Positions 1-41,985 of a stretch of 42,807 nt of DNA are shown here, piece after piece; position 1 is the first letter of the stretch, and each line of letters begins with the position of its first letter. This stretch comes from an uncultured Spirochaetia bacterium (GTDB lineage Bacteria > Spirochaetota > CALGPD01): contig CAYUYT010000002.1 in assembly GCA_964449345.1 (NCBI GenBank), positions 1 through 42,807 of the forward strand, in the 5' to 3' direction. The notes beneath the pieces were generated by a model that searched no databases, was not told where the DNA came from, and saw only the letters and a list, made by a program, of their open reading frames with translations. The position numbers were made by a program, and so were the translations under genes.

Positions 1-1
1 A

Positions 2-52
2 GAGACTTTTAAAAAAATGATATTAGAGTTTTATGATTTAGAAAATAATTAA
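2..52 (+). CDS. 3' end of an unidentified ORF truncated by the window edge (…ETFKKMILEFYDLENN*)
   Basis: Frame 2 is open from the edge to TAA at 50-52; the attC-like repeat follows ~50 bp later. Confidence 0.35.
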   Translation, partial: ETFKKMILEFYDLENN

Positions 53-96
53 AGAATTTAATAGGTAAATAAATAAGGACGATATGCTTGAAAACG

Positions 97-239
97 ATTC
101 GACAACAGCCGATATGAGGTTCCGGCGGGACAAGCCCGCCTCCACCCAAATTGCACTTTGTCACGATTTTTGCAAAAGCAAAAATGCGTGTCAATCGGCT
201 GGCTTCGGCAAGCTCCGCCCGACTCTCCGCACGTTAGTT
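97..239 (+). repeat. attC-like structured repeat, copy 1 (apparently complete)
   Basis: Begins GACAAC just after a stop codon and ends GTTAGTT (233-239). CAGCCGAT (106-113) pairs with ATCGGCTG (194-201). Two internal hairpins. 102-188 is homologous to 2221-2307. Confidence 0.6.
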
Positions 240-327
240 TCAATTTTTGAGAATGCCTAAAAGTTAGAGTTAAGACAAAGAAATAGGAAATAACCTTTTT
301 TCTCCCACCCAATAGGAGAGACGCGCG

Positions 328-430
328 TAGTTTTCTTTTCAAGAAAACTAGATAGCAAAAACTTCGTTTTTGGATTTATATGGGGATTTCCTTAGTCCTT
401 CGAACAGATAGTTTTGCTTCGCAAAATTAT
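328..430. repeat. Three short hairpins with TTC/GAA triloops
   Basis: TAGTTTTCTT-TTC-AAGAAAACTA (328-350), CAAAAAC-TTC-GTTTTTG (356-372), ATAGTTTTGC-TTC-GCAAAATTAT (408-430). Confidence 0.6.
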
Positions 431-1686
431 TTAAGAGACAGCCTTTTTACCAATTCAGTACTTTTTTGCTTTGCTTCTGGTAACCGTTCTGAGAAGAAAG
501 CTCTTGTTTTATCAAACTTTTGTTTGTACCCTTCCATGTCCTTATTTTCTACTATTGAAGCCCACTCCCTTACGGCAGAATGAAATTCTAAATCATCCCC
601 TCTGATTCCTTTATCATAAATTGCTGTATCTAAACTTTCTTCCAATAATTTTGAATTCCTAAATAAATATTCTGCAATTCCTAATCTTAATTTGAAAGGA
701 GGAGTTTGGCAAATCATATTATCGTATGGATTAATCCCCATTTGGTGCCATGCATCAACCATTGACAATAAACTTAAATGAGAATTTGGTTTTCTTTGTT
801 CAGATGGAATTCCTAAACTGAATTCTCCCATCACATCATCATTTAATAGTATTGGAGCATCTCCATTTCCAAACACAAATTCTCCAGCTCTTTTTATTCT
901 CTCCCTAAATGTTCCCTCGTCTTCTTGAATCATCATCTTAAACAATTCTGATTCAGATTGAGCATATTGTTTAACTTGTTCTCTTGCAAAAGGATTTAAC
1001 AAAGCTAAACCTCCATAGATATGAGATTTTCCACAATAAATCCGAAGCGTCATCAATATTTTAACATTATCAATTCCTCCAACATAAGATGCATTTTCCC
1101 ACGGAAAAAATCCTGCATTTTTCCATGCCGTTCCCATACTTTCAAAACCAACATGAGTAACTGCCTGGGTATCAGCAGTTATTTTGTCATGTTCTTGATA
1201 TGTTGGTATTTCAACAACATTTGAACCTAAAACTCTAAGAGTATCTAAAGCCCTTTGATATGCTTCATCAGAACTTCTATGTCTTATAACTGCAAGGCTT
1301 TGTCCAACAGGACTAACTGTTGGACTATGCAAAGAATGGCAGGTAACAATATTTGCATCTTCTGGCAAATATCTTTCAAATGCTTTAATTTCAGGAGTTT
1401 TAACAGAAGTTTGACCTGCCACTATTGCTCCTGTTTTAGTTGATGGACCAAATTGCCTTACCACTCTATCAATACCTTCTGCTTCCACAGAATAGAAGAT
1501 TAAATCGCTTCTTCTTGAAACTGCAATACCATCACCTAAAATATAAACTCCTGTTCCTTGTAATTCTTGTTCTAATTGAGTTCTCTTTTCAGGCAAATCA
1601 CAACCATTTACCCTATATCCTGCTTTAGCAAACTCTTTTGCATACAATTTGCCCATATCACCTAATCCTATAAGTCCTATTTCCAT
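427..1686 (-). CDS. tyrA: Prephenate dehydrogenase, fungal Tyr1-like subtype
   Basis: GLIGLGDMG Rossmann motif; YSVEA, GQTSVK, HSLH, EHDKITADTQAVTH and LRIY closely match yeast Tyr1 as recalled; GGAGGT RBS. Confidence 0.9.
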   Translation of the reverse strand: MEIGLIGLGDMGKLYAKEFAKAGYRVNGCDLPEKRTQLEQELQGTGVYILGDGIAVSRRSDLIFYSVEAEGIDRVVRQFGPSTKTGAIVAGQTSVKTPEIKAFERYLPEDANIVTCHSLHSPTVSPVGQSLAVIRHRSSDEAYQRALDTLRVLGSNVVEIPTYQEHDKITADTQAVTHVGFESMGTAWKNAGFFPWENASYVGGIDNVKILMTLRIYCGKSHIYGGLALLNPFAREQVKQYAQSESELFKMMIQEDEGTFRERIKRAGEFVFGNGDAPILLNDDVMGEFSLGIPSEQRKPNSHLSLLSMVDAWHQMGINPYDNMICQTPPFKLRLGIAEYLFRNSKLLEESLDTAIYDKGIRGDDLEFHSAVREWASIVENKDMEGYKQKFDKTRAFFSERLPEAKQKSTELVKRLSLK

Positions 1687-2011
1687 TTATTTACCTCCAA
1701 ATAATCTTATAGATGATTTTAATAAAGTACAATTATTTTTCTCGGAAAAATCTATCACTTCGTTGATTTTTCTCGCAACAATTTTTGATTTCTCCCTTGC
1801 TTCTTCTATACTTCCGCTTTCTCTCTCAACAAGGGCTTGTAAGAAGCCGGCAGAATTCAGAACAAATTCAGGAATAAATATAATGCCTTTCTCCAATAAT
1901 CTCATTTATTAAAGTATTATTTGCTCCACCTGCAACAACCTTACAATTTAAATTTGAGATTGTCTGTTCATTCAGAGTACCTCCAAAAGCACATGGAGAA
2001 AAAATATACAC
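1687..2011 (-). pseudogene. 5'-truncated, frameshifted Glu/Leu/Phe/Val dehydrogenase C-terminal remnant
   Basis: Reads IFSPCAFGGTLNEQTISNLNCKVVAGGANNTL, then continues in another frame as LLEKGIIFIPEFVLNSAG. These match the LeuDH-type PCA..AG.ANN.L and GI.Y.PD..N.GG motifs. Confidence 0.8.
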
Positions 2012-2200
2012 TTCGAAATTGAATCGGTGATACATAAAAACATTTTATGTGAAAATATTACTATAACTAAAAACATAACTGGCATCTTATTGATAGGTGG
2101 TTACTTAGGAATTGCGAAGGACTACCTCAAAGAATTAAATAAAATTAAAAGTAAAGAATACTCGATCGAGCAGTTTGAAAATATTATTGGTAAAAAATAA
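2012..2200 (+). pseudogene. 3' fragment of an unidentified gene, possibly a cassette ORF, lacking a start
   Basis: 63 codons (FEIESVIHKN…ENIIGKK*) ending 20 bp before repeat copy 2; abuts the dehydrogenase remnant. Confidence 0.4.
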
Positions 2201-2220
2201 TGTATGCCTGCAACTATCAC

Positions 2221-2307
2221 ACAACAGCCGATATGAGGTTCCGGGCAGTCAAGCTGCCCTATACCCAAATTGCACTTTGTCACGGTTTTTGCAAAAGCAA
2301 AAACACG
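2221..2307 (+). repeat. attC-like structured repeat, copy 2 (right arm missing)
   Basis: 87 bp colinear with 102-188; first 24 bp identical; stems show compensatory changes. Confidence 0.65.
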
Positions 2308-2511
2308 GGGCAGACTTTTTGGTTGAAAATATGATATGTTTGATAAAACAATTTCTTAATCCCCGCGCCCCAAGAAGCGCGGACAATGTATAACAGGGGA
2401 ATAATATGCAGAATTTACTTGAAGACTTAAACTAAAGGTTTGCATTTAAGAATAAAATTTAAACTTATTTTAACAGATTTTCAAACTAATACTCTTTATT
2501 AATTTATAATC

Positions 2512-2540
2512 TTGACAAAAAATAAATAACGAATTATTAT
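2512..2540 (+). promoter_or_regulatory. sigma70-type promoter for metH
   Basis: TTGACA-17 bp-TATTAT; AGGAGA RBS before ATG 2582. Confidence 0.65.
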
Positions 2541-2581
2541 ATCAATATATCATGATGAAGTGATTAATTTTAGGAGAAAAA

Positions 2582-5029
2582 ATGTCCAAATTAGATAACT
2601 TGCTCAAAAAACGTATGGTATTTCTTGACGGCGCTTTTGGTACGGAGCTGCAAAAAAACGGATTAGGCCCGGGTGATATTCCTGAATTGTGGAATGTTAC
2701 TCATAGTGAAATTATTAAAAATATTCATAAAGATTACGTTGATGCTGGTGCGGATATTATCAATACTAACACTTTCGGCGGAAACAGGTTTAAATTAAAA
2801 GAGTTAGGCATTGAGAACCGAATTCAAGAATTAAACGAAACTGCCGTACATCTTGCAAAAGCCGTTGCCGGAGAAAAAGCTCTTGTAGCCGGGTCTATCG
2901 GACCTACGGGAGTATTTTTAGAACCACACGGAAAAGTTACTTTTGATGAAATGTATAATGTTTATAAAGAGCAGGTTAAAATTATCGCTGATGCGGGAGC
3001 TGATATTATAAATTTTGAAACAATGGTGGATATAGGAGAATTACGCGCGGCCGTATTAGCTACTTTTGATGTTTGTGATTTACCCGTTTTTGCAAGTTTA
3101 ACTTTTGATGAAAAAGGCAGGACTTTAACAGGCAGTAATGTTATAACGGGTTTTAACATACTAGAAGGCCTAGGCGTTGATTTTATCGGAACGAACTGCG
3201 GGATGGGACCCGAGCAAATGTATGAAATTTTAAAACACGTTCGAAAACACATTAGCGCTAAACTCGTTGTACAGGCAAACGCAGGGCTTCCCGTTATTAA
3301 AAACGGAGAAACGCATTTTTCAATGAAAAAAGAAGAATATTCAAAACACGTAAAAAATATCGTTGATTTGGGCGTTAGCGTTTTAGGCGGGTGCTGTGGC
3401 ACTACACCGGAATTTATAAAAGTTATCAAACGGGAATTTGATAATACAAAAGTAAAGGAATTTAAACCTGATAATGTGATTCGTTTAAGTTCTCAAAGTA
3501 AAACGGTTTTAGCAGGACAGGGGCAAAGGTTTTTGAAAATCGGTGAAAAAATAAATCCTTCTGCAAGCAAAAAACTGCGTCTTGAAGTTAAGCAGGGAAA
3601 TTTATCTTTTGCGAAGGAGCTTGCAAAAAGACAGGAGCAGGCAGGCGCTGATATTATTGATGTCAATATGGGGACATCGGGAATTGACGAAACGGAAATG
3701 ATTTTAAAAGCGGTTAAATCTCTTTGCGCGATTGTAAACGTGCCCGTGTGTATAGATTCAACGCGCAACCAAGCAATTGAACTCGCTGTTAAACACTATC
3801 CGGGAAGGGTTTTGATAAACTCTATCTCCGGCGAAAAAGAAAAAATGGATGCAATTTTACCCGTTATGAAAAGATACGGCAGTTATGCAATTTTATTGCC
3901 ACTTGATGAAAACGGTATTCCCGAAACCTTAGAAGAACGCGCAAAAATAATTGAACGCATTATAACAGAAGCGCAAAAATACGGTATAGATAAACGGCGG
4001 TTTCTCGTTGACGGGCTTGTAATGACTGTTAGCGCGGCGCAGCCCCTTGTAATGTTAGCCATTGAAACGGTAAAAATGGTAAAAGAAAAATTCGGAATGA
4101 ACACTACTGCGGGATTATCAAACGTAAGTTTCGGACTCCCGCAGCGCGGTTTAATTAATGCGAGTTTTCTATCAATGCTCATTGCCGCTGGCCTTGATTC
4201 TGCGATTGTAAACGTAGAGAGCGATTTTATTATGAGTGCAGTCAGAGCAGGCGAAGCAATAACGGGCAAAGATCACAGCTCACTTGATTTTATTAATGCT
4301 TATAAAGATGCCGGGCCTTTAATTATCGCGGAAAAAAACATGGTAGGAGATAAAAAGGCTGACGAAAAGCATGAAACAACGAAGGCAACGGTTAAAAACG
4401 AAAAGTTTAAAGGCAACGCGTTATTTAATGCAATATTAACGGGAGATTCTGATAATGTAGTTTCGTTAATAGAAAAAAGTCTTGAAGCAAAAGAACAAGC
4501 TCTTGACATTGTTAATAAAACCATGATTCCTGCAATAATGGAAGTTGGTGAAAAATACGATACAGGCGAATATTTTTTGCCTCAACTTATGATGAGTGCT
4601 GAAACAATGAAAAAAGGTTTTGTTTTCCTTGCACCGTTATTAAAAAAAGGCGCAGCAAAATCAATCGGCAAAATTATTCTAGCAACGGTTAAGGGCGATG
4701 TTCACGATATTGGGAAAAACATTGTGAGCATAATGTTTGCGAATCACGGTTTTGAGGTTATTGATTTGGGTAAGGACGTTGCTTCGGAATACATAATCGA
4801 ACAGGCCGTTGCAAACAAAGCTTCGGTAATCGGTTTGAGCGCTTTAATGACAACGACAATGGAAGAGATGTCCCGATTCATGAAATTAAAACATGAACGC
4901 AATCTTGAAATTCCCGTTTTAGTGGGCGGCGCGGTTGTTAATGATGAATATGCAAAGAGTATCGGTGCGCACTATGCTAAAGACGCTGTTCGCGCGGTTG
5001 AAAAAGCAAAGCAACTTATTAAAAACTAA
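2582..5029 (+). CDS. metH: Cobalamin-dependent methionine synthase, short form without the AdoMet reactivation domain
   Basis: Homocysteine domain (DGAFGTEL, GTNCG, GGCCGT), pterin domain (IGEKINP), B12 cap and GDVHDIGKNIV motif; ends after the B12 domain. Confidence 0.93.
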   Translation: MSKLDNLLKKRMVFLDGAFGTELQKNGLGPGDIPELWNVTHSEIIKNIHKDYVDAGADIINTNTFGGNRFKLKELGIENRIQELNETAVHLAKAVAGEKALVAGSIGPTGVFLEPHGKVTFDEMYNVYKEQVKIIADAGADIINFETMVDIGELRAAVLATFDVCDLPVFASLTFDEKGRTLTGSNVITGFNILEGLGVDFIGTNCGMGPEQMYEILKHVRKHISAKLVVQANAGLPVIKNGETHFSMKKEEYSKHVKNIVDLGVSVLGGCCGTTPEFIKVIKREFDNTKVKEFKPDNVIRLSSQSKTVLAGQGQRFLKIGEKINPSASKKLRLEVKQGNLSFAKELAKRQEQAGADIIDVNMGTSGIDETEMILKAVKSLCAIVNVPVCIDSTRNQAIELAVKHYPGRVLINSISGEKEKMDAILPVMKRYGSYAILLPLDENGIPETLEERAKIIERIITEAQKYGIDKRRFLVDGLVMTVSAAQPLVMLAIETVKMVKEKFGMNTTAGLSNVSFGLPQRGLINASFLSMLIAAGLDSAIVNVESDFIMSAVRAGEAITGKDHSSLDFINAYKDAGPLIIAEKNMVGDKKADEKHETTKATVKNEKFKGNALFNAILTGDSDNVVSLIEKSLEAKEQALDIVNKTMIPAIMEVGEKYDTGEYFLPQLMMSAETMKKGFVFLAPLLKKGAAKSIGKIILATVKGDVHDIGKNIVSIMFANHGFEVIDLGKDVASEYIIEQAVANKASVIGLSALMTTTMEEMSRFMKLKHERNLEIPVLVGGAVVNDEYAKSIGAHYAKDAVRAVEKAKQLIKN

Positions 5030-5337
5030 TATTTTGTGTAAACTCTTGGGCGGCTTTTATAAATCATTTTTTTTAAAATTCAATTATCAAAAATACCTGA
5101 GTGTATTTAAAAAGTCATACTTAAAACGCAAAAATTAATTAAACTCATTTAAAATTTTATTTTATTGTTTTACCAGTGTTATATGTAAACAATAAAATCC
5201 ACATTGTATTGAATTTTGACGTTATACATTTGTTCAATATAATATTTTTAAATTTTATAAATAAATTTGAAAATATAACCAAAATATACTTGATTTACGC
5301 ATAATAAAACTGTATTTTTCTTAGACATTAAATACGA

Positions 5338-5411
5338 GGGCCCATAGCTCAGTCGGTTAGAGCAGCTGGCTCATAACCAGCGTGTCCCAAGTTCGAGTCT
5401 TGGTGGGCCCA
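5338..5411 (+). tRNA. tRNA with CAT anticodon, probably Ile2 (lysidine), otherwise elongator Met
   Basis: GGGCCCA/TGGGCCC acceptor stem, TAGCTCAGTCGGTTAGAGCA D-arm, GCTGG-CTCATAA-CCAGC anticodon arm, GTTCGAGTC T-arm; CCA not encoded. Confidence 0.95.
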
Positions 5412-5488
5412 AAATGAAAATATTATGGAAAAAGGATTTTTAATTATAAAACGGCATAAAAATTTTTTCTTTAATTTTATAAAAAATA

Positions 5489-5523
5489 AAAAGCATAAGG
5501 CAAGTTAACCTTATGCTTTTTTT
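5489..5523 (+). terminator. Intrinsic terminator downstream of the tRNA
   Basis: AAAGCATAAGG-loop-CCTTATGCTTT followed by a T run. Confidence 0.65.
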
Positions 5524-11755: not shown

Positions 11756-12505
11756 TCATTTGCGGCGGGAACGTTTGTATTTTTGCAGAGCTTTACCCGT
11801 CATTGGAACAAAGTGGTCTGCAAAATATGCCCGGGTCTTGATTCTCCCTTGTTTATCTTTCTTTAGAACAATCATGCGTTGTTTTCCGTAAGGGTTGCCT
11901 ACGGGAATTATCATGGTTCCTCCGCGCGCAAGTTGACGGACTAATGCAGGCGGGATGTGGTTTGTTCCGCAAGTAACGAGTATTTTATCAAACGGAGCGT
12001 GTTCTTTCCAGCCGAAATAACCGTCTGCAACTTTAGTCGTTATTTTATCGGAAAAACCGTGCTTAGCGTGAACGCGTTTTGCATCTAGGCCTAAGGGCTT
12101 TACTATTTCAATTGTATAAACCTTGCTGCCGAAGTTAGCCAAAATCGCGCTTTGAAAACCCGAACCCGTGCCGATTTCAAGTATTTTATCGTTTGGTTGA
12201 GGGTTTGACATATAAGTCATCCACGCCACCATTCTAGTACCTGAAATGGTTTGCCCGTAGCCGATTGACAGCGGACTCGGGCTATATGCTGCTCTTTTTG
12301 AGGGCCATCTTCCCGTTTCCCTGTTTTGAACAAACAATTCGCGTTTAACTTTCCAGAATGCGTTTGTTATCCTATCCGGTATATTCCATTTTTTCATGTG
12401 ACGGACTATTCGCCCTATTGCCTTTTTCCTATCCTGTTCGGAAAAAGAAAACCCGATTGCCGAGATTAGAATTATTGTACTAAAAATAATTATTTTCCGT
12501 TTCAT
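11756..12505 (-). CDS. pcm: Protein-L-isoaspartate O-methyltransferase with N-terminal signal peptide (paralog A)
   Basis: IGYGQTIS, ILEIGTGSGFQ, APFDKILVT, QLARGG..IPVG and FVPMTG motifs; MKRKIIIFSTIILISAIGFS leader. Confidence 0.9.
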   Translation of the reverse strand: MKRKIIIFSTIILISAIGFSFSEQDRKKAIGRIVRHMKKWNIPDRITNAFWKVKRELFVQNRETGRWPSKRAAYSPSPLSIGYGQTISGTRMVAWMTYMSNPQPNDKILEIGTGSGFQSAILANFGSKVYTIEIVKPLGLDAKRVHAKHGFSDKITTKVADGYFGWKEHAPFDKILVTCGTNHIPPALVRQLARGGTMIIPVGNPYGKQRMIVLKKDKQGRIKTRAYFADHFVPMTGKALQKYKRSRRK

Positions 12506-12522
12506 TAATTACCTCTCCTATT

Positions 12523-13356
12523 TTAATTGTTACGGTTTTGCTTGAATTTGTTTAAGGCTTTGCCTGTCATTGGCACAAACCTTACATGCATAAGTTTTTT
12601 CGTTTTAACTCTGCCGTTTTCATCCTTTCGCAACTCAATTAACTTTTGAATTCCGTATGGATGACCCACAGGCACGAGCATAATACCCCCGCGTTTTAAC
12701 TGCCTAATTAACGCCGGTGGAATGTGATTAGTTGCACAAGTAACGAGTATTTTGTCAAAAGGCGCGTGTTCTTTCCAGCCGAAATAACCGTCTGCGATTT
12801 TCGTTTTAATATTTGAATACCCGAATTTTTTATAAATTTGCTTTGTACTTTCACCGAGTTTTTCAACAATCTCGATAGAATAAACTTTACTGCAAAGTTT
12901 TGACAATAGCGCGCTTTGATAACCCGAACCCGTGCCGATTTCAAGTACTTTGTCGTTTTTGTCAGGCAAAGCAAGTTTAGTCATAATCGCGACCATGTTC
13001 GGGCTTGAAATAGTTTGGCCGTACCCGATTGGCAGCGGTGTTTCTTCATACGCCATTCTAACATTTGTGAATGCCCTTTTCATGTTCGTCCTGTGCCAGC
13101 CGAACCGCTCGCGTTTTACGCTCTTTAGCGCGGCTTTTACACGTGGCTGTAAGTTAAAACGCCTCATGCGGATAAACATTAGCTTTTTAGCGCCTTTTAA
13201 ATATCCGCTTTGGGATTTAATGTAAGAATCAATTTTTGTGATTTTTGCGTTGGTTCTGCGGATAAAAAGCGTTTTTGCGTGATTATTCATTTTCGCGGAA
13301 AAAGCAATTATTGCGGTTACGCATAATAACGTTAAGATTAAAAGGATTTTTTTCAT
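12523..13356 (-). CDS. pcm: Protein-L-isoaspartate O-methyltransferase with N-terminal signal peptide (paralog B)
   Basis: AYEETPLPIGYGQTIS, VLEIGTGSGYQ, APFDKI and VRFVPMTG motifs; GGAG RBS before ATG 13356; MKKILLILTLLCVTAIIAFSA leader. Confidence 0.9.
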   Translation of the reverse strand: MKKILLILTLLCVTAIIAFSAKMNNHAKTLFIRRTNAKITKIDSYIKSQSGYLKGAKKLMFIRMRRFNLQPRVKAALKSVKRERFGWHRTNMKRAFTNVRMAYEETPLPIGYGQTISSPNMVAIMTKLALPDKNDKVLEIGTGSGYQSALLSKLCSKVYSIEIVEKLGESTKQIYKKFGYSNIKTKIADGYFGWKEHAPFDKILVTCATNHIPPALIRQLKRGGIMLVPVGHPYGIQKLIELRKDENGRVKTKKLMHVRFVPMTGKALNKFKQNRNN

Positions 13357-36189: not shown

Positions 36190-36292
36190 TATACTAATAA
36201 TACTTTAAATTTTATGCAACCGACACTTTAAAGTGTCGGTTGAAAAGCAATTACAATATACAATACTTTGATTTTAAAATCACTTTAGTATA
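36190..36292 (+). mobile_element. 103-bp MITE-like element, left copy
   Basis: TATACTAA…TTAGTATA ends; perfect 26-bp palindrome at 36217-36242; exact reverse complement of 37770-37872. Confidence 0.8.
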
Positions 36293-36573
36293 CTAATAAA
36301 ATTTTAAATTTAAAGACAAAGTGCGATTAAAATCCGCGGCTGCAAGTAAATTGCAAAAGCGTTATTTTTTTAGATTTACCTAATTTCAAACTTGTACCTA
36401 TAAAATCCATTAATTTGATTCCAGAATTATTTTAGTATACGGTTTTTTTTGTAAATCTGTTTCCCTTATTTCAAATATTGATAATTTATTCCTAAATTGG
36501 TTTTGATAATAAAGATTTTAGAGTTTTACGTTGTTAATAAAACAAAGCAAATAAAAATCAATGAGGCAAAGTA

Positions 36574-37362
36574 TTGAAACGCAAAATTTTTATTCTAGAA
36601 AATGAAGAAGATAACATTTTAGTTTATAAATATGTATTACGGGATTTTATTCTCTTGATAAAGGATAATTTGGAAGATGCAATTGATTATGTAAAATCAG
36701 ATGATTTTAATACTGTGGATATTGCAATTTTAGATATTAATTTGGGAGACAGTTTAAAAATCGGCGGGTTTAACGTTGCTTATCAGATAATAAAAAAAAG
36801 CACGTTAATTCCTATAATAATTTGCTCTGCTTATGCTGATGAAAACCGGGTAAGGCAAAACGCCCGGCGAATAAATGCCCTGCTTGTAAAAAAACCCGTT
36901 GAAGAAAGTATTGTTGAGGAGATTTATGAAATGATCCAAACGAATTCCTGTTTGCGCATAAGCGATATTGAACAGGCAACAAAGGAATTTATCACGGGAG
37001 CGGCATATTTAAAATATATAATGGAAAACGATTTTACTTTTTCTCCAACGATGCTTGATAAAATGGATTTTGTTCAAAAAATTGAAACAAAAATTATTAA
37101 TGATTTCAATTTAATAAGAGAGGCTAAAACAAAAAATATTGCAATCTCGCAGGATAGTAAAGGCGATAGTGATTTTATTGATGTTTTCAAAGAAGAGTTG
37201 ACTTTATATATTGAAACGCTTTTATACGTTGTTGATTCAACAATGTATAATCAATTAAACATAAGTAAAAACGAAATCGAATTTATTGAAGAAATAACAT
37301 CAACGGGTAATTTTATATTAAATAATATTGGAAACTATATTTACGAACAAAAGGCAGGATGA
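36574..37362 (+). CDS. Response regulator: receiver plus unrecognised C-terminal domain
   Basis: ILENEED, AILDINL, CSAY and KKP motifs. Confidence 0.8.
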   Translation: MKRKIFILENEEDNILVYKYVLRDFILLIKDNLEDAIDYVKSDDFNTVDIAILDINLGDSLKIGGFNVAYQIIKKSTLIPIIICSAYADENRVRQNARRINALLVKKPVEESIVEEIYEMIQTNSCLRISDIEQATKEFITGAAYLKYIMENDFTFSPTMLDKMDFVQKIETKIINDFNLIREAKTKNIAISQDSKGDSDFIDVFKEELTLYIETLLYVVDSTMYNQLNISKNEIEFIEEITSTGNFILNNIGNYIYEQKAG

Positions 37363-37769
37363 AGCAAATGCATAAAATTTTCGTTATAGACGACGAAGAG
37401 GATAATCTCCGCGTTTTTTCTATTTTATTTAAAACGCTTAAACTTGAATACGGGTTTGAATGCGATTTGTATTTAATCAAGCCGGAGGACACAGAGGATT
37501 TAGAAAATAAAATCATGGAAATCAATCCTGATATTATATTCCTCGATATCAAGCTTCCGTCAAAATCAGGTATTGAAATTTTCGACTCACTTCGAATGTT
37601 AGGGTATAACAATCCTATTATTGCTCAAACTGCATCGGTAACGCGTAACGAAGTGGAAGTGTATTCGGAAATTTTTTCTGACGGGTTGCTGGAAAAACCC
37701 ATTAGCCATGAAAAAATTATAAATGCCCTTGAAAATCACGGTTTATGGATAGAAAAAACAATTAAGTAA
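37359..37769 (+). CDS. Single-domain response regulator
   Basis: VIDDEED, IFLDIKLP, QTAS and EKP motifs; ATGA overlap with the upstream gene. Confidence 0.88.
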   Translation: MKQMHKIFVIDDEEDNLRVFSILFKTLKLEYGFECDLYLIKPEDTEDLENKIMEINPDIIFLDIKLPSKSGIEIFDSLRMLGYNNPIIAQTASVTRNEVEVYSEIFSDGLLEKPISHEKIINALENHGLWIEKTIK

Positions 37770-37872
37770 TATACTAAAGTGATTTTAAAATCAAAGTATT
37801 GTATATTGTAATTGCTTTTCAACCGACACTTTAAAGTGTCGGTTGCATAAAATTTAAAGTATTATTAGTATA
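37770..37872 (-). mobile_element. 103-bp MITE-like element, right (inverted) copy
   Basis: Exact reverse complement of 36190-36292; starts immediately after the TAA at 37767-37769. Confidence 0.8.
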
Positions 37873-39783: not shown

Positions 39784-41985
39784 ATGGGGTTATTCTATCA
39801 TCCGTGTGATGTAATTTTTAAATCAAAATTTAAACATAAATTTATAATATATTACATAAAAATATTTGTTCTCGTCATCTTATTTCTATTATTTGCCACT
39901 AGTATTTTTCCGGCAAAAAAAATAAAAAAAGAAAAAGTTAGCTCTCCTAAAATTTCACATTCTTCGGGAACCTATTACAAAGAATTAAAAATTGAAATAA
40001 AATCAAAAACTAAAAACGCAAAAATATACTATACAATAGACGGAAAGCCGCCGCTTAACAAAGGTGGGCAGCCGCACAGAAAAGCAAAGTTATATAAAAA
40101 TCCCGTGTTAATTAATAAATCCTGTAAATTAAAGTGCGTTGCTTTTAAAAAAGGAAGCAAAGCCAGCAAAACAGTAACAGCAGAATACACGTTGAAAATG
40201 CCTTCACTTGCGTTTTCCTTAGATAAAACCGAGTATTACAACGAACAAAAACTGGAAATTAAGTTAAAGCACGTTGAAAAAAATAAAATTTCCCGCTATT
40301 CCATTTTTTATACAACAGACGGTAGCGAACCCGCACACAAAAACGGGAAATCCCTTGAAAACACAAAATTATACAAGGATAAAATTGAAATTGACAAAAC
40401 AACTACGGTTAAAGCCGTTGCTTATAAAAAGGCCTGGGAACAAAGCCAAATCATATCAAAAGAGTTTGTAATTAAAATAAGCCCTGTTGATTTTTCTCAT
40501 AAAGCCGGGGAACATTTCAAGGGTATAGATTTAGAGTTAACGGGTAAAACTAAAAACGCAAAAATATTTTATACAACAAACGGGAGTGAACCGGAACACC
40601 ACAACGGAAAACCAAAGGGTAATACAAAAATATACAACGAAAAAATAAAAGTATATGAAACGAAAACCATTAAAGCGTTTTCATGGAAAAAAGGGTTAGG
40701 AGCATCCGAAACAACGGAAAAAAAATTCGTTATTAATAAAATAGCGGGTAAAAAAATATTTATTTTACAATTTATTAAGAAAAAAAACTCCGAAGATTAT
40801 GCTTTTGGCAAATCCGTTCCAAGAAGTATTAGAAGCGTACTTCGAAAAAATAATAAAGTTAAATATTCTTCTAAATCCATGTCAAATCAAAAACTATTGA
40901 AAAGAAAATTTCAATTCATTATTAAAGGCAAATATATAGTCCGTAAAGGAAAAATGCGTGTTCAATTTTCCGTTGTTCACTTAAAAAAAGATAAACCCGT
41001 TTTAATCGCAATTGCTAACGGCTACCCGGACTACCGTATGTTTAGATTAATAGATTCCATTGCCGGACTTGTAAATAAACAATTAAATAAAAAAATAAAA
41101 ATACTTTTATCCAGAGTTTTAATCCTCACAATTGATCCTAAAGGAAAAATAAAGCGAAGCAATAGAAATAGTTTAGACGGTTTTGACCTATCCGATTTAA
41201 ACTTAAAAGGCATAAAGTTAACGAGAAGAAATTTAAGCAATATTAATTTTCATAACAGTGATTTAACTGATGCGAATTTAAGCCATTCAAATGTCAGGGG
41301 CGTTAATTTCAGCGGGATAAAATATGACGGAATGAAAAGCATGAAAAGCTGTTTAAATTTCACCGAAGCAAAGGGAATAAGCATGGGAATGCTTAATCAG
41401 GTTTACGTTCACGATTTCTTTATAACAGCCGGGCTTGGATTCGGTGCGTCTGAAATTTATTCAAGTTCTGCATACAACGTAGAACTTAGCCAGCTCGGGT
41501 TGACCACCGAAGCAAATCACGGTTTTTCCTTTAAAGTTAAAGCCGGAGTATGGTGGTTTATGCACGAGTATTTCGGCTTGTTCGCTTATGCTTCTTTTGA
41601 ACATAACATATTAATCGAAAAAATACCGGCTTATCAAAGCGTTTCAGCGCACGATGAATATTACAAAATTAATTATTTAATAATAAACGCAGCAGGGGCA
41701 CTTAGGTTAAGTAATTTCACTTTTTTTGTTGGGTTTTTTATGGGTTTTCCCTTAGGTTTTAATAAAGACGAAGATGAATTTTACAGCATTAGGACAACGC
41801 TCGGCTTAGGCGCAGGTTTAGGGTATAAATTCCGTTTAAGCATGAAAACGTATATTTACGTGGGCTTTGAATACAAACTTCATTTCTTAAAATGGGGTTC
41901 ATCAGACAAATTCGAAGACGGAACCGGGGGAAGCAAGTTCATGACATTTTATCTCGATGTATCTTTTTTACTAGGGTTATTTTAG
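39784..41985 (+). CDS. Mosaic surface protein: 3 chitobiase-C/Fn3-like repeats, pentapeptide repeats, C-terminal beta-barrel
   Basis: IYYTIDG, IFYTTDGSEP and IFYTTNGSEP repeats; LSNINFHNSDLTDANLS; alternating aromatic strands ending in Phe; start uncertain. Confidence 0.78.
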   Translation: MGLFYHPCDVIFKSKFKHKFIIYYIKIFVLVILFLLFATSIFPAKKIKKEKVSSPKISHSSGTYYKELKIEIKSKTKNAKIYYTIDGKPPLNKGGQPHRKAKLYKNPVLINKSCKLKCVAFKKGSKASKTVTAEYTLKMPSLAFSLDKTEYYNEQKLEIKLKHVEKNKISRYSIFYTTDGSEPAHKNGKSLENTKLYKDKIEIDKTTTVKAVAYKKAWEQSQIISKEFVIKISPVDFSHKAGEHFKGIDLELTGKTKNAKIFYTTNGSEPEHHNGKPKGNTKIYNEKIKVYETKTIKAFSWKKGLGASETTEKKFVINKIAGKKIFILQFIKKKNSEDYAFGKSVPRSIRSVLRKNNKVKYSSKSMSNQKLLKRKFQFIIKGKYIVRKGKMRVQFSVVHLKKDKPVLIAIANGYPDYRMFRLIDSIAGLVNKQLNKKIKILLSRVLILTIDPKGKIKRSNRNSLDGFDLSDLNLKGIKLTRRNLSNINFHNSDLTDANLSHSNVRGVNFSGIKYDGMKSMKSCLNFTEAKGISMGMLNQVYVHDFFITAGLGFGASEIYSSSAYNVELSQLGLTTEANHGFSFKVKAGVWWFMHEYFGLFAYASFEHNILIEKIPAYQSVSAHDEYYKINYLIINAAGALRLSNFTFFVGFFMGFPLGFNKDEDEFYSIRTTLGLGAGLGYKFRLSMKTYIYVGFEYKLHFLKWGSSDKFEDGTGGSKFMTFYLDVSFLLGLF

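Follow-up and report, generated by a model that had tools for sequence, protein, structure and literature searches.

A pair of attC-type repeats as the probable decayed end of a cassette array beside metH in an uncultured Spirochaetia bacterium

The window, i.e., the whole stretch of 42,807 nt analysed here (contig C2 of the genome of an uncultured Spirochaetia bacterium, positions 1 to 42,807, window position 1 being the contig start), opens with two direct repeats, which are very probably attC sites at the far, decayed end of a cassette array (CALIN) bordering on metH. This reading, proposed in essence by the initial annotation as an attC-like tail of an integron- or CALIN-type array, is supported on five counts: further copies stand between single ORFs on one strand, in the same genome as well as in other genomes and metagenomes; the arrays carry a cassette-junction signature; homologous sites lie close to a canonical IntI in a complete chromosome; the sister species lacks the leftmost part of the window; and no Rfam family matches. 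Seen by itself, the feature is a commonplace relic in which a cassette array of an uncultured, mat-dwelling bacterium comes to a dead end; it would account for break points of the assembly and mark window positions 1-2533 as horizontally acquired. The family of sites to which it belongs is the more notable part, being widespread, carrying a G|TT footprint without extra-helical bases, and tracking an IntI-sister recombinase.

In the mechanism that we propose, one strand of each attC site would fold into a hairpin, presumably also in vivo, in which the R box pairs AAC with GTT and the L box forms an 11-bp stem. A tyrosine recombinase would exchange strands at G|TT, so that cassettes could be excised or inserted singly. 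Copy 1 would be a relic that has kept R'', R' and the inner hairpins and lost most of its L-stem pairing, and copy 2 a relic that has lost its entire 3' third, crossover point included. The remainder of the array is probably dispersed among further contigs, since assembly stopped at the repeats.

The repeat pair and its surroundings

The direct, colinear repeats occupy window positions 93-193 and 2212-2312, with 82% identity in a gapless alignment (BLAST E=1.1e-23 in a self-comparison of the genome), and identity falls to 27% and 23% immediately beyond their edges. The 87-bp copies delimited by the initial annotation (102-188 and 2221-2307) are placed correctly; they differ at 12 of 87 positions, and 8 of these differences fall inside two hairpin stems. 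The pairing-preserving swaps reported for the stems hold as well: four pairs are fully compensatory (126:138, 127:137, 128:136 and 166:185), and none of the differences within the stems breaks a pair. Folding of the two copies as plus-strand RNA gave z scores of -4.2 and -4.7 against shuffles.

Each copy closely follows a plus-strand stop codon, as had been noticed. The 3' end of an upstream cassette ORF (2..52, plus strand, frame 2 open from base 2) stops at TAA 50-52, and an ORF of 57 aa (2027-2200, plus strand) stops 18 nt before copy 2. Copy 1 (100..239, plus strand) is full-length and decayed, and matches the covariance model of the family, R1, with 129.9 bits over 98-240. It comprises R'' (CGACAAC, 100-106), L'' (108-118), hairpin 1 (124-129/135-140), a conserved core (143-164), hairpin 2 (162-173/178-190), a degenerate L' arm (~215-228) and R' (GTTAGTT, 233-239); the AAC start and GTTAG end described earlier were located at 104-106 and 233-237. 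Relative to R1, both the L stem and the long-range helix contain non-pairs. Six of the 11 L-stem positions are non-pairs (alignment A4); with copy 2 lacking L', the paired L stem of the family is missing from the window. The heptamers of copy 1 fit RYYYAAC/GTTRRRY in part, their degenerate positions deviating.

Copy 2 (2219..~2313, plus strand, R1 68.6 bits) retains no more than the first two-thirds, counted from the 5' end: R'' (ACACAAC, 2219-2225), L'' (2227-2237), hairpin 1 (2243-2248/2254-2259), the core, and hairpin 2 (2285-2292/2297-2304). It lacks hairpin 3 as well as L' and R', and with the latter two the crossover point; in the R1 alignment its 3' part is forced and non-pairing. Both copies are thus real repeats, as claimed, but the second is incomplete, its similarity to copy 1 stopping near 2313.

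The segment between the sites (240..2218) carries accessory cargo. Its main gene, encoding a 419-aa NAD-binding, prephenate-dehydrogenase-like protein according to Pfam (427-1686, minus strand), lies on the strand opposite to the two sites and was absent from 40 of 40 relatives searched at E<=1e-20. It is accompanied by a broken gene in two fragments (1687-2035, minus strand), which terminates at the last ~29 nt of another intergenic repeat family of ~85 nt (2002..2030, plus strand), and by the 57-aa ORF. A single contig of run X1, one of the microbial-mat metagenomes, spans 245-2292 unbroken. To the right of copy 2 follows unique junction DNA between array remnant and conserved chromosome (2314..2533); neither 2313-2540 nor 240-430 is repeated elsewhere in the genome. 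The first conserved chromosomal gene beside the array tail is a metH-type methionine synthase (2582..5029, plus strand; Pfam S-methyl_trans, Pterin_bind and B12-binding domains). Homology to the sister species, G001, begins at 2534, with 76% DNA identity over 2534-5010, and window sequence to the left of 2534 has no counterpart there.

One might regard the pair as a live unit, in which two working attC sites bound one mobile 2-kb cassette. Both sites lie on the plus strand, 2119 nt apart and hence under the 4-kb clustering rule that parts of the IntegronFinder paper give (PMC4889954), and their cargo is accessory. We grant this reading a small chance. The non-pairs of copy 1 run throughout its L stem; its R' (GTTAGTT) is not complementary to the R'' of copy 2 (ACACAAC), so that the window junction scores 0/1; the segment contains a truncated, frame-broken gene and the remnant of another repeat; and the joined form was unseen in contigs of four runs. 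The segment is not one intact cassette, and both copies are probably inactive.

The decayed array end resembles CALINs, clusters of attC sites lacking an integron-integrase (Cury et al. 2016; PMC4889954), in several respects: it has at least two same-strand sites of attC type separated by less than 4 kb, no IntI was found close by or elsewhere in the assembly, and its cargo is of unknown or accessory function. The spacing in the window agrees with this even with copy 2 truncated, and no integrase was found inside the window, as the initial annotation had stated. The window differs from a CALIN in that one site is truncated and the other decayed; it is therefore a remnant and not a cluster that could be mobilised, and our call comes from our own models, not from IntegronFinder.

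The site family and its cassette arrays

The repeats belong to a family of elements of ~85-215 nt with attC architecture, extending from RYYYAAC to GTTRRRY and containing an 11-bp L stem. Intact members match these limits exactly, e.g., GCCTAAC/GTTAGGC on contig C56 of the same genome and CACATAAC/GTTATGTG in the metagenome locus L042. Twelve members were aligned with R1, the alignment being fitted to the model, and 90% of its cells pair. Covariation, the test that had been suggested for the repeats, was found: in 18 of the 42 pairs both partners change, compared with 10.3+/-1.7 in shuffles (0/500 reach 18) and 2-9 in slid controls. Within the L stem this holds for 7 of the 11 pairs, with 88.6% of cells paired. 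The terminal structure ranges from a single short hairpin (the simple sites of contig L084, ~85 nt) to a branched three-hairpin form, and the hairpin-2 loop from 4 to ~76 nt. The inner module (22-nt core, hairpin 2 and hairpin 3) is conserved across genomes, and the R-L spacer is mostly paired. No single-base bulge (extra-helical base) was seen on the R''-L'' arm of the family sequences examined; the L'-R' arm has 3-5 additional nt, placed between L' and R'.

R1 matches were obtained in 25 of the 151 genomes sampled from the phylum, own genome and sister species included, and MAGs carrying the labels Bacteroidales, Marinimicrobia and Bdellovibrionales contain the family as well. When 60 relatives were searched with the element by BLASTN, nothing matched, and divergent members were later found by covariance model; a shorter model was built from simple sites. 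Scanning genome contigs with an 18-base core returned 15 loci, 9 of them true relatives and 6 chance or coding matches, at ~17 chance matches estimated from database size. A naive AAC-stem...stem-GTT scan of the AT-rich own genome gave 1754 matches and was uninformative.

Further copies spaced one gene apart, for which the initial annotation had advised a search, are present in the own genome. Contig C56 carries three sites and one partial site within 3.8 kb, arranged on one strand as an end-of-contig partial site, an FmdE-domain gene, the full copy 3 (R1 179.7 bits), a DNA methylase with a CfrBI-type endonuclease, a site, and a short ORF. Read by eye, the C56 array ends at a tRNA-like sequence. 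Sites on C4 and C282 have the same arms and different centres, and lie at or near contig ends. Partner sites for the R' of copy 1 or the R'' of copy 2 in attC context were absent from the own genome, with the exception of C4, whose site has an R' (GTTGTCG) complementary to the R'' of copy 1; a link between C4 and the window contig is therefore possible, judging from this heptamer. Longer arrays occur in metagenomes. On contig L084, seven sites share one strand within 8.7 kb; in every interval the longest ORF lies on the site strand, as do 11 of the 17 ORFs of at least 70 aa. L042 has three sites and L046 two.

In these arrays the R'' heptamer of a site is exactly complementary to the R' of its upstream neighbour in 14 of 15 junctions from six arrays (C56 2/2, L084 5/6, L042 2/2, L104 2/2, L108 1/1, L065 2/2). 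The site's own downstream R' differs in 10 of the 14 matching junctions. At L049, a locus discussed below, 0/4 junctions were perfect and two reached 6/7. Such complementarity is what recombination at G|TT leaves behind. Furthermore, in Logan contigs from four microbial-mat runs, bins of the attC core have ~10x the depth of their flanks (X1: 68 and 60 vs ~6), and many different sequences abut the core on both sides. Neither an excision junction nor a joined form was present in the Logan contigs of these four runs.

Among known systems, the attC sites (59-base elements) of sedentary chromosomal integrons, among them the large VCR-type sites, are similar in their RYYYAAC...GTTRRRY limits, their pairing R and L boxes, a variable and possibly branched terminal structure, high similarity within one array, one site per promoterless ORF, and a G|TT crossover visible as complementarity of R'' and upstream R'. 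On the other hand, the family lacks their single-base R''-L'' bulge and instead carries the 3-5 added nt between L' and R', its R-L spacer is mostly paired, and its inner module recurs across genomes. The initial annotation had called the sites branched and non-canonical. The first term stands, but the second does not follow from it, since sections of PMC2727003 describe branched terminal structures for large attC sites such as VCR.

A dispersed repeat outside integrons, MITE- or REP-like and spread by a transposase or replication slippage, would also account for copies on several contigs and in the genomes of several phyla; it would suit the missing IntI in most host genomes, as well as the 'mini' forms of ~25 nt and the inverted composites found on C4, C14 and C85. 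We give it a very small chance: no terminal inverted repeats or target-site duplications were seen, array copies are all direct and one per gene, the junction signature is compatible with strand exchange at G|TT, and the tyrosine recombinase closest to IntI adjoins several arrays. That the element is instead an RNA conserved for its fold, either a small RNA or a cis element of 3'-UTR or terminator type, has scarcely any chance; the initial annotation had kept a structured RNA as an alternative. In its favour, covariation does not discriminate RNA from single-stranded DNA, the plus strand folds well, and strong conservation extends to unpaired stretches, the 22-nt core for instance. Against it, Rfam gave only a tRNA and chance matches at gathering threshold and E<=10, the AAC/GTT limits and the junction signature are a DNA-recombination footprint that RNA does not explain, sites follow every gene in same-strand arrays, and relatives occur in an integron adjoining IntI.

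Canonical IntI and an insert-less recombinase clade

An intI gene, which the initial annotation had recommended looking for, was not found in its canonical form: the own assembly (93% complete, 429 contigs) has 0 TIGR02249 matches above cut-off, and tblastn with the IntI of G061, a complete Spirochaetia chromosome, reached a best identity of 36%. The best TIGR02249 match of the genome, on contig C94, lacks model positions 180-234. A complete integron, i.e., an intI with the IntI-specific domain plus attI, is absent from the own genome and present in G061, whose IntI scores 399.6 bits against a cut-off of 265. An attI-like GTTATATACC lies ~160 nt upstream of this gene on the divergent strand, with the array next to it, and the array sites match the R1 core with 31.9-37.1 bits. 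These sites have in common with the window family the core ...TTG.CTTTTGTCA-hairpin-ACG.GCCAA...CAAAC and the same junction signature; they differ in lacking hairpin 1, in having a one-base R''-L'' bulge (6/6) and symmetric spacers, and in the canonical IntI adjoining them. In the phylum sample, canonical IntI was detected in 2 of 38 family-carrying genomes (R1 or R2) versus 13 of 112 without the family. In 30 loci searched by tblastn, it stood beside none of the long-type sites.

The C94-like clade consists of tyrosine recombinases of ~270-300 aa, and of all sequences in the comparison these stand nearest to IntI. In the PDB the clade is best matched by VchIntIA; the match falls into two stretches, between which chain residues 180-240 are passed over. 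TIGR02249 aligns with clade members only before and after the IntI-specific region, and a ~40-aa insert is missing. The clade was found in 35 of 150 genomes of the phylum; it occurs in 21 of 38 family-carrying genomes vs 14 of 112 without the family, counts that ignore kinship, one family (f9) supplying 12 of the 35 integrase-positive genomes. A clade gene and a family site lie within 10 kb on the same contig in 6 of the 35 genomes (chance estimate ~0.3), and for 18 of 38 clade genes the nearest contig end is no more than 2.5 kb away. The single clade gene of the own genome is located at a contig end, on C94. L049 has five attC-like sites, the first of them 205 nt away from a divergent clade integrase. 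The first seven C94-like loci inspected were a biased pick; over 31 further loci, R1 with default filters gave one strong and one weak match, and physical association of integrase and site is only partial, given these 2 of 31.

The ~40-aa IntI-specific domain contacts extra-helical bases, which are held to direct strand choice, and an 'additional domain' is said to have been reported by Messier and Roy in 2001 as necessary for IntI activity. With no R''-L'' bulge, and with its extra bases placed on the other arm, the family may choose its strand in an altered or mirrored manner; in excerpts from PMC2727003, extra-helical bases are defined as single unpaired bases on the R''-L'' arm. It is conceivable, if on balance doubtful, that the attC family belongs to an integron-like system run by the insert-less integrase clade, and which recombinase acts on the family sites is something we infer from co-occurrence and proximity. 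Extracts of Cury et al. (2016; PMC4889954) describe 50 tyrosine recombinases near attC without intI_Cterm, judged 'not IntI', 4 of which were 'intermediate between IntI and Xer'. C94-like integrases resemble these in lacking the IntI-specific region, and differ from what those extracts present in that they recur (35/150 genomes), are enriched in family-carrying genomes and adjoin the L049 array. Should the clade move these cassettes, integron finders that require intI_Cterm would undercount integrons, many 'orphan' CALINs would have an unrecognised integrase partner, and a natural contrast would be available for testing what the IntI-specific domain contributes to attC recognition.

Other repeats in the genome

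A string search with CCGCCCGTT gave 37 matches, 7 of which are element ends (C4, C14, three on C56, C85 and C282); the other 30 were judged by eye to be coding or unrelated sequence. The second repeat of ~85 nt, whose last part lies between the window sites, does not match Rfam. Its interpretation as an IS end was rejected, four full copies following four different ORFs. Nineteen core copies of it are present in the own genome, many of them at contig ends (alignment A7).

The attC-like repeat pair and its structure

The start of the window carries two colinear direct repeats at 93-193 and 2212-2312, which are 82% identical without gaps (E=1.1e-23 by BLAST within the source genome) and beyond whose limits identity is only 27% and 23%. 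The initial annotation had described 87-bp colinear copies with stem-preserving differences, and this was confirmed. The 87-mers differ at 12 of 87 positions. Two hairpin stems account for 8 of these differences, which combine into four fully compensatory pairs, and none of the stem differences breaks a pair. Each copy is preceded by a plus-strand stop. Both copies are present on the plus strand, but only copy 1 (100-239, with AAC at 104-106 and GTTAG at 233-237) spans the element; copy 2 (2219 to about 2313) holds its 5' two-thirds and is without hairpin 3, L' and R'.

The full element opens with RYYYAAC, which a single base separates from an 11-nt L'' arm. Hairpin 1, a conserved 22-nt core, hairpin 2 and a short hairpin 3 follow. 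A long-range helix, in which TTGNNC pairs with GNNCAA, then contributes its 3' strand, after which the L' arm leads over 4-5 bases to the closing GTTRRRY. The hairpin-2 loop ranges from 4 to about 76 nt across members, and in simple members of about 85-100 nt the long-range helix alone forms the terminal hairpin. A covariance model of the full-length family (R1) was built from three copies with the proposed structure. Among 12 members from six sources, in an alignment that was fitted to R1 and hence favours the structure, 90% of cells pair and both-side changes occur in 18 of 42 pairs, against 10.3±1.7 in shuffles (0/500 reach 18) and 2-9 with slid partners. An Rfam search with the element gave no family match.

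Comparison with a complete Spirochaetia chromosome (G061) relates the family to known attC sites. G061 encodes an IntI scoring 399.6 bits (TIGR02249 cut-off 265); an attI-like sequence, GTTATATACC, occupies the divergent strand some 160 nt upstream of it, and after this come a first site with R'' GTATATAAC and then more sites. Judged from the match of four G061 sites to the R1 core (31.9-37.1 bits), the window family is homologous to the sites of a bona fide integron. Extra-helical bases are described, in PMC2727003, as single partnerless bases of the R''-L'' arm, and the G061 sites have one such base on that arm in 6/6 cases. In contrast, the members of the window family that were read have none there; instead, the stretch separating L' from R' on the L'-R' arm has 3-5 surplus bases. 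Nearly all members read have a C immediately before GTT, corresponding to a conserved G after AAC on the bottom strand. Earlier papers place Treponema as the only spirochaete clade then known with integrons (2013; PMC3607928), and describe attC sites as conserved within taxa and clustered by environment, with a Spirochaetes-type model included (Ghaly et al., 2021; PMC8352920).

Cassette arrays and the recombination footprint

The source assembly comprises 429 contigs (93% complete, 33% G+C), with the window forming the first 42.8 kb of contig C2, and a third full copy lies on contig C56. Along the minus strand of C56, a partial site truncated where the contig ends is followed by an FmdE-domain gene and then by the full copy. 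Next come a DNA methylase paired with a CfrBI-type endonuclease, a site with the same arms and a different centre, and a short ORF; a tRNA-like sequence, read by eye, follows on the opposite strand. The beginning of C4 and the terminal part of C282 also hold sites in which the same arms enclose yet other centres. An attC array assembled from short reads gives just this picture of variable centres, conserved arms and contigs that break inside repeats.

Related sites extend well beyond this genome. Exact-core scans identified true relatives in 9/15 genome loci, from MAGs titled Spirochaetia, Spirochaetota, Bacteroidales, Bdellovibrionales and Marinimicrobia, a taxonomy that short-contig binning may blur. 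R1 matches 11/15 metagenome loci and 25/151 sampled phylum genomes, the source genome included, with four matches in the sister species. Locus L084 holds seven sites in 8.7 kb, all on one strand, on which the longest ORF of every interval and 11/17 ORFs of at least 70 aa also lie; L042 and L046 hold three and two sites, likewise each on one strand. Further copies separating single ORFs on one strand were found on C56 and L084.

Integron crossover takes place between G and TT, so that the last six bases of R' end up in the next cassette. A site is thus expected to have an R'' complementary to the R' of its upstream neighbour rather than to its own. Comparing heptamers at consecutive sites of six arrays, we found this in 14/15 junctions (C56, 2/2; L084, 5/6; L042, 2/2; L104, 2/2; L108, 1/1; L065, 2/2), and in 10 of the 14 fitting junctions the site's own downstream R' differs. 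Junctions at L049 are looser, with 0/4 perfect and two matching 6/7. If the element were a structured RNA or a transposon end, this pattern would not be produced.

Two side observations concern these contigs. The C56 methylase and endonuclease (about 3000-5500) apparently have their own inverted repeats of about 70 nt on both sides, seen by eye, and may represent a mobile restriction-modification unit that entered the cassette array. In addition, 'mini' sites with a length of roughly 25 nt (AAC, 5-bp stem, 3-4-nt loop, 5-nt bulge, GTT) occur at C4:313-362, C14:3414-3438 and C85:8124-8190, each adjoining a conserved spacer of about 22 nt; those on C4 and C85 lie head-to-head with the 5' arm of a normal site.

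A candidate integrase

No canonical IntI was found in the 93% complete source assembly. The highest-ranking TIGR02249 match, a 284-aa integrase encoded where contig C94 ends (12205-13056, minus strand), covers model positions 1-179 and 235-313 only. Homologues with 35-47% identity (38 genes, E<=1e-45) occur in 35 of the 150 other phylum genomes. When family presence was scored with R1 and a second model for simple sites (R2) combined, the 38 genomes with the family included 21 with a C94-like integrase and 2 with canonical IntI, compared with 14 and 13 among the 112 without it; these counts ignore kinship. In 6 of the 35 genomes (G028, G096, G147, G125, G123 and G043), integrase and site lie within 10 kb on one contig, against about 0.3 by a rough estimate of chance; of the 38 genes, 18 are no more than 2.5 kb away from a contig end. 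At L049, a 284-aa integrase points away from five attC-like sites, the nearest 205 nt from its start, and the longest cassette ORFs (7/8 array ORFs of at least 80 aa) lie on the sites' strand. On the other hand, default-filter R1 searches of 31 further integrase loci gave only one strong and one weak match, and in several loci the sites are downstream, on the same strand and non-divergent.

By alignment, the C94-like clade of tyrosine recombinases, apparently sister to IntI, is without the IntI insert of about 40 aa that is present in all six canonical IntI compared. In a quick FastTree, the canonical IntI form a single group that falls among or beside the C94-like clade, with Xer-like proteins outside. 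Against PDB, the C94 protein matches VchIntIA best (E=3e-43); the match falls into two stretches and leaves out chain residues 180-240. XerA scores nearly equally. In Cury et al. (2016; PMC4889954), source of the CALIN definition and 4-kb rule, 50 tyrosine recombinases near attC sites lacked intI_Cterm; four of them, 'intermediate between IntI and Xer' and with fewer than three sites, were judged not to be IntI. In our full-text literature search, no paper was found that links attC arrays to an IntI-like clade lacking the insert. The window's attC family appears to be partnered with an integrase without the IntI-specific domain, and it merits a specialist's look because of this apparent partner and its mirrored asymmetry.

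State of the window sites and neighbouring repeats

Copy 1 scores 129.9 bits with R1, with 6/11 L-stem pairs broken along with the long-range helix and hairpin 3, and its R' is non-complementary to the R'' of copy 2. Between the copies lie a 419-aa NAD-binding gene, weakly prephenate-dehydrogenase-like, on the strand opposite to the sites and found in none of 40 relatives searched, as well as a 57-aa ORF and a broken gene in two fragments without Pfam match, possibly a Glu/Leu/Phe/Val dehydrogenase C-terminus. Synteny with the sister species (locus L067, on its contig C507) breaks exactly at 2534, in the metH promoter, and homology runs only from there onward; 1-2533 is therefore accessory. 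Together with the family's arrays and junctions, this flank supports the initial proposal of an attC-like pair at the tail of an integron/CALIN-type cassette array. As the decayed distal end of such an array, the feature is a known kind of relic. The R'' of copy 1 complements the R' of the C4 site, by which the start of C4 may join that of the window. Upstream of metH, L067 carries a radical-SAM activase gene, whose homologue in the source genome is on C31, and further upstream a GC-rich, structured-looking stretch.

The runs carrying this stretch are microbial-mat metagenomes, with no RNA runs among those listed. Across four runs, Logan contigs cover the two attC core bins about 10x as deeply as their flanks, and many different sequences join before 102 and behind 200; one contig covers 245-2292, and no joined (excised) form was seen in these contigs. 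In run X3, bins over 262-435 reach about 36-39x against 2-4x for the neighbouring gene, largely because 261-380 is covered by a 120-nt contig at 27.5x. The intergenic stretch 261-435, single-copy in the source genome, may in part be multi-copy in that community.

A repeat of about 85 nt, unrelated to the attC pair, leaves its last 29 nt at 2002-2030, where the broken gene ends. It is oriented and intergenic, with an internal CATACAC...GTGTATG hairpin and no Rfam match. Its core has 19 copies in the source genome (at C94:13064-13111, C66 at about 14956, C366 at about 1386, C132 at about 2811, C12 at about 6815, and others), many of them exactly at contig ends; the C94 integrase starts 34 nt downstream of one copy, and four full copies each follow a different ORF. 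A MITE, a regulatory element and an array repeat are candidate identities. Elsewhere in the window, 139-nt inverted repeats (36190-36328 and 37734-37872, 88% complementary), each with a perfect palindrome that is present on C66 too, enclose a 1.4-kb module of receiver-domain-like ORFs (36574-37362 and 37359-37769). A repeat finder also reported direct pairs at 12102-12274 and 12866-13038 (173 nt, 74%) and at 40303-40430 and 40564-40691 (128 nt, 70%).
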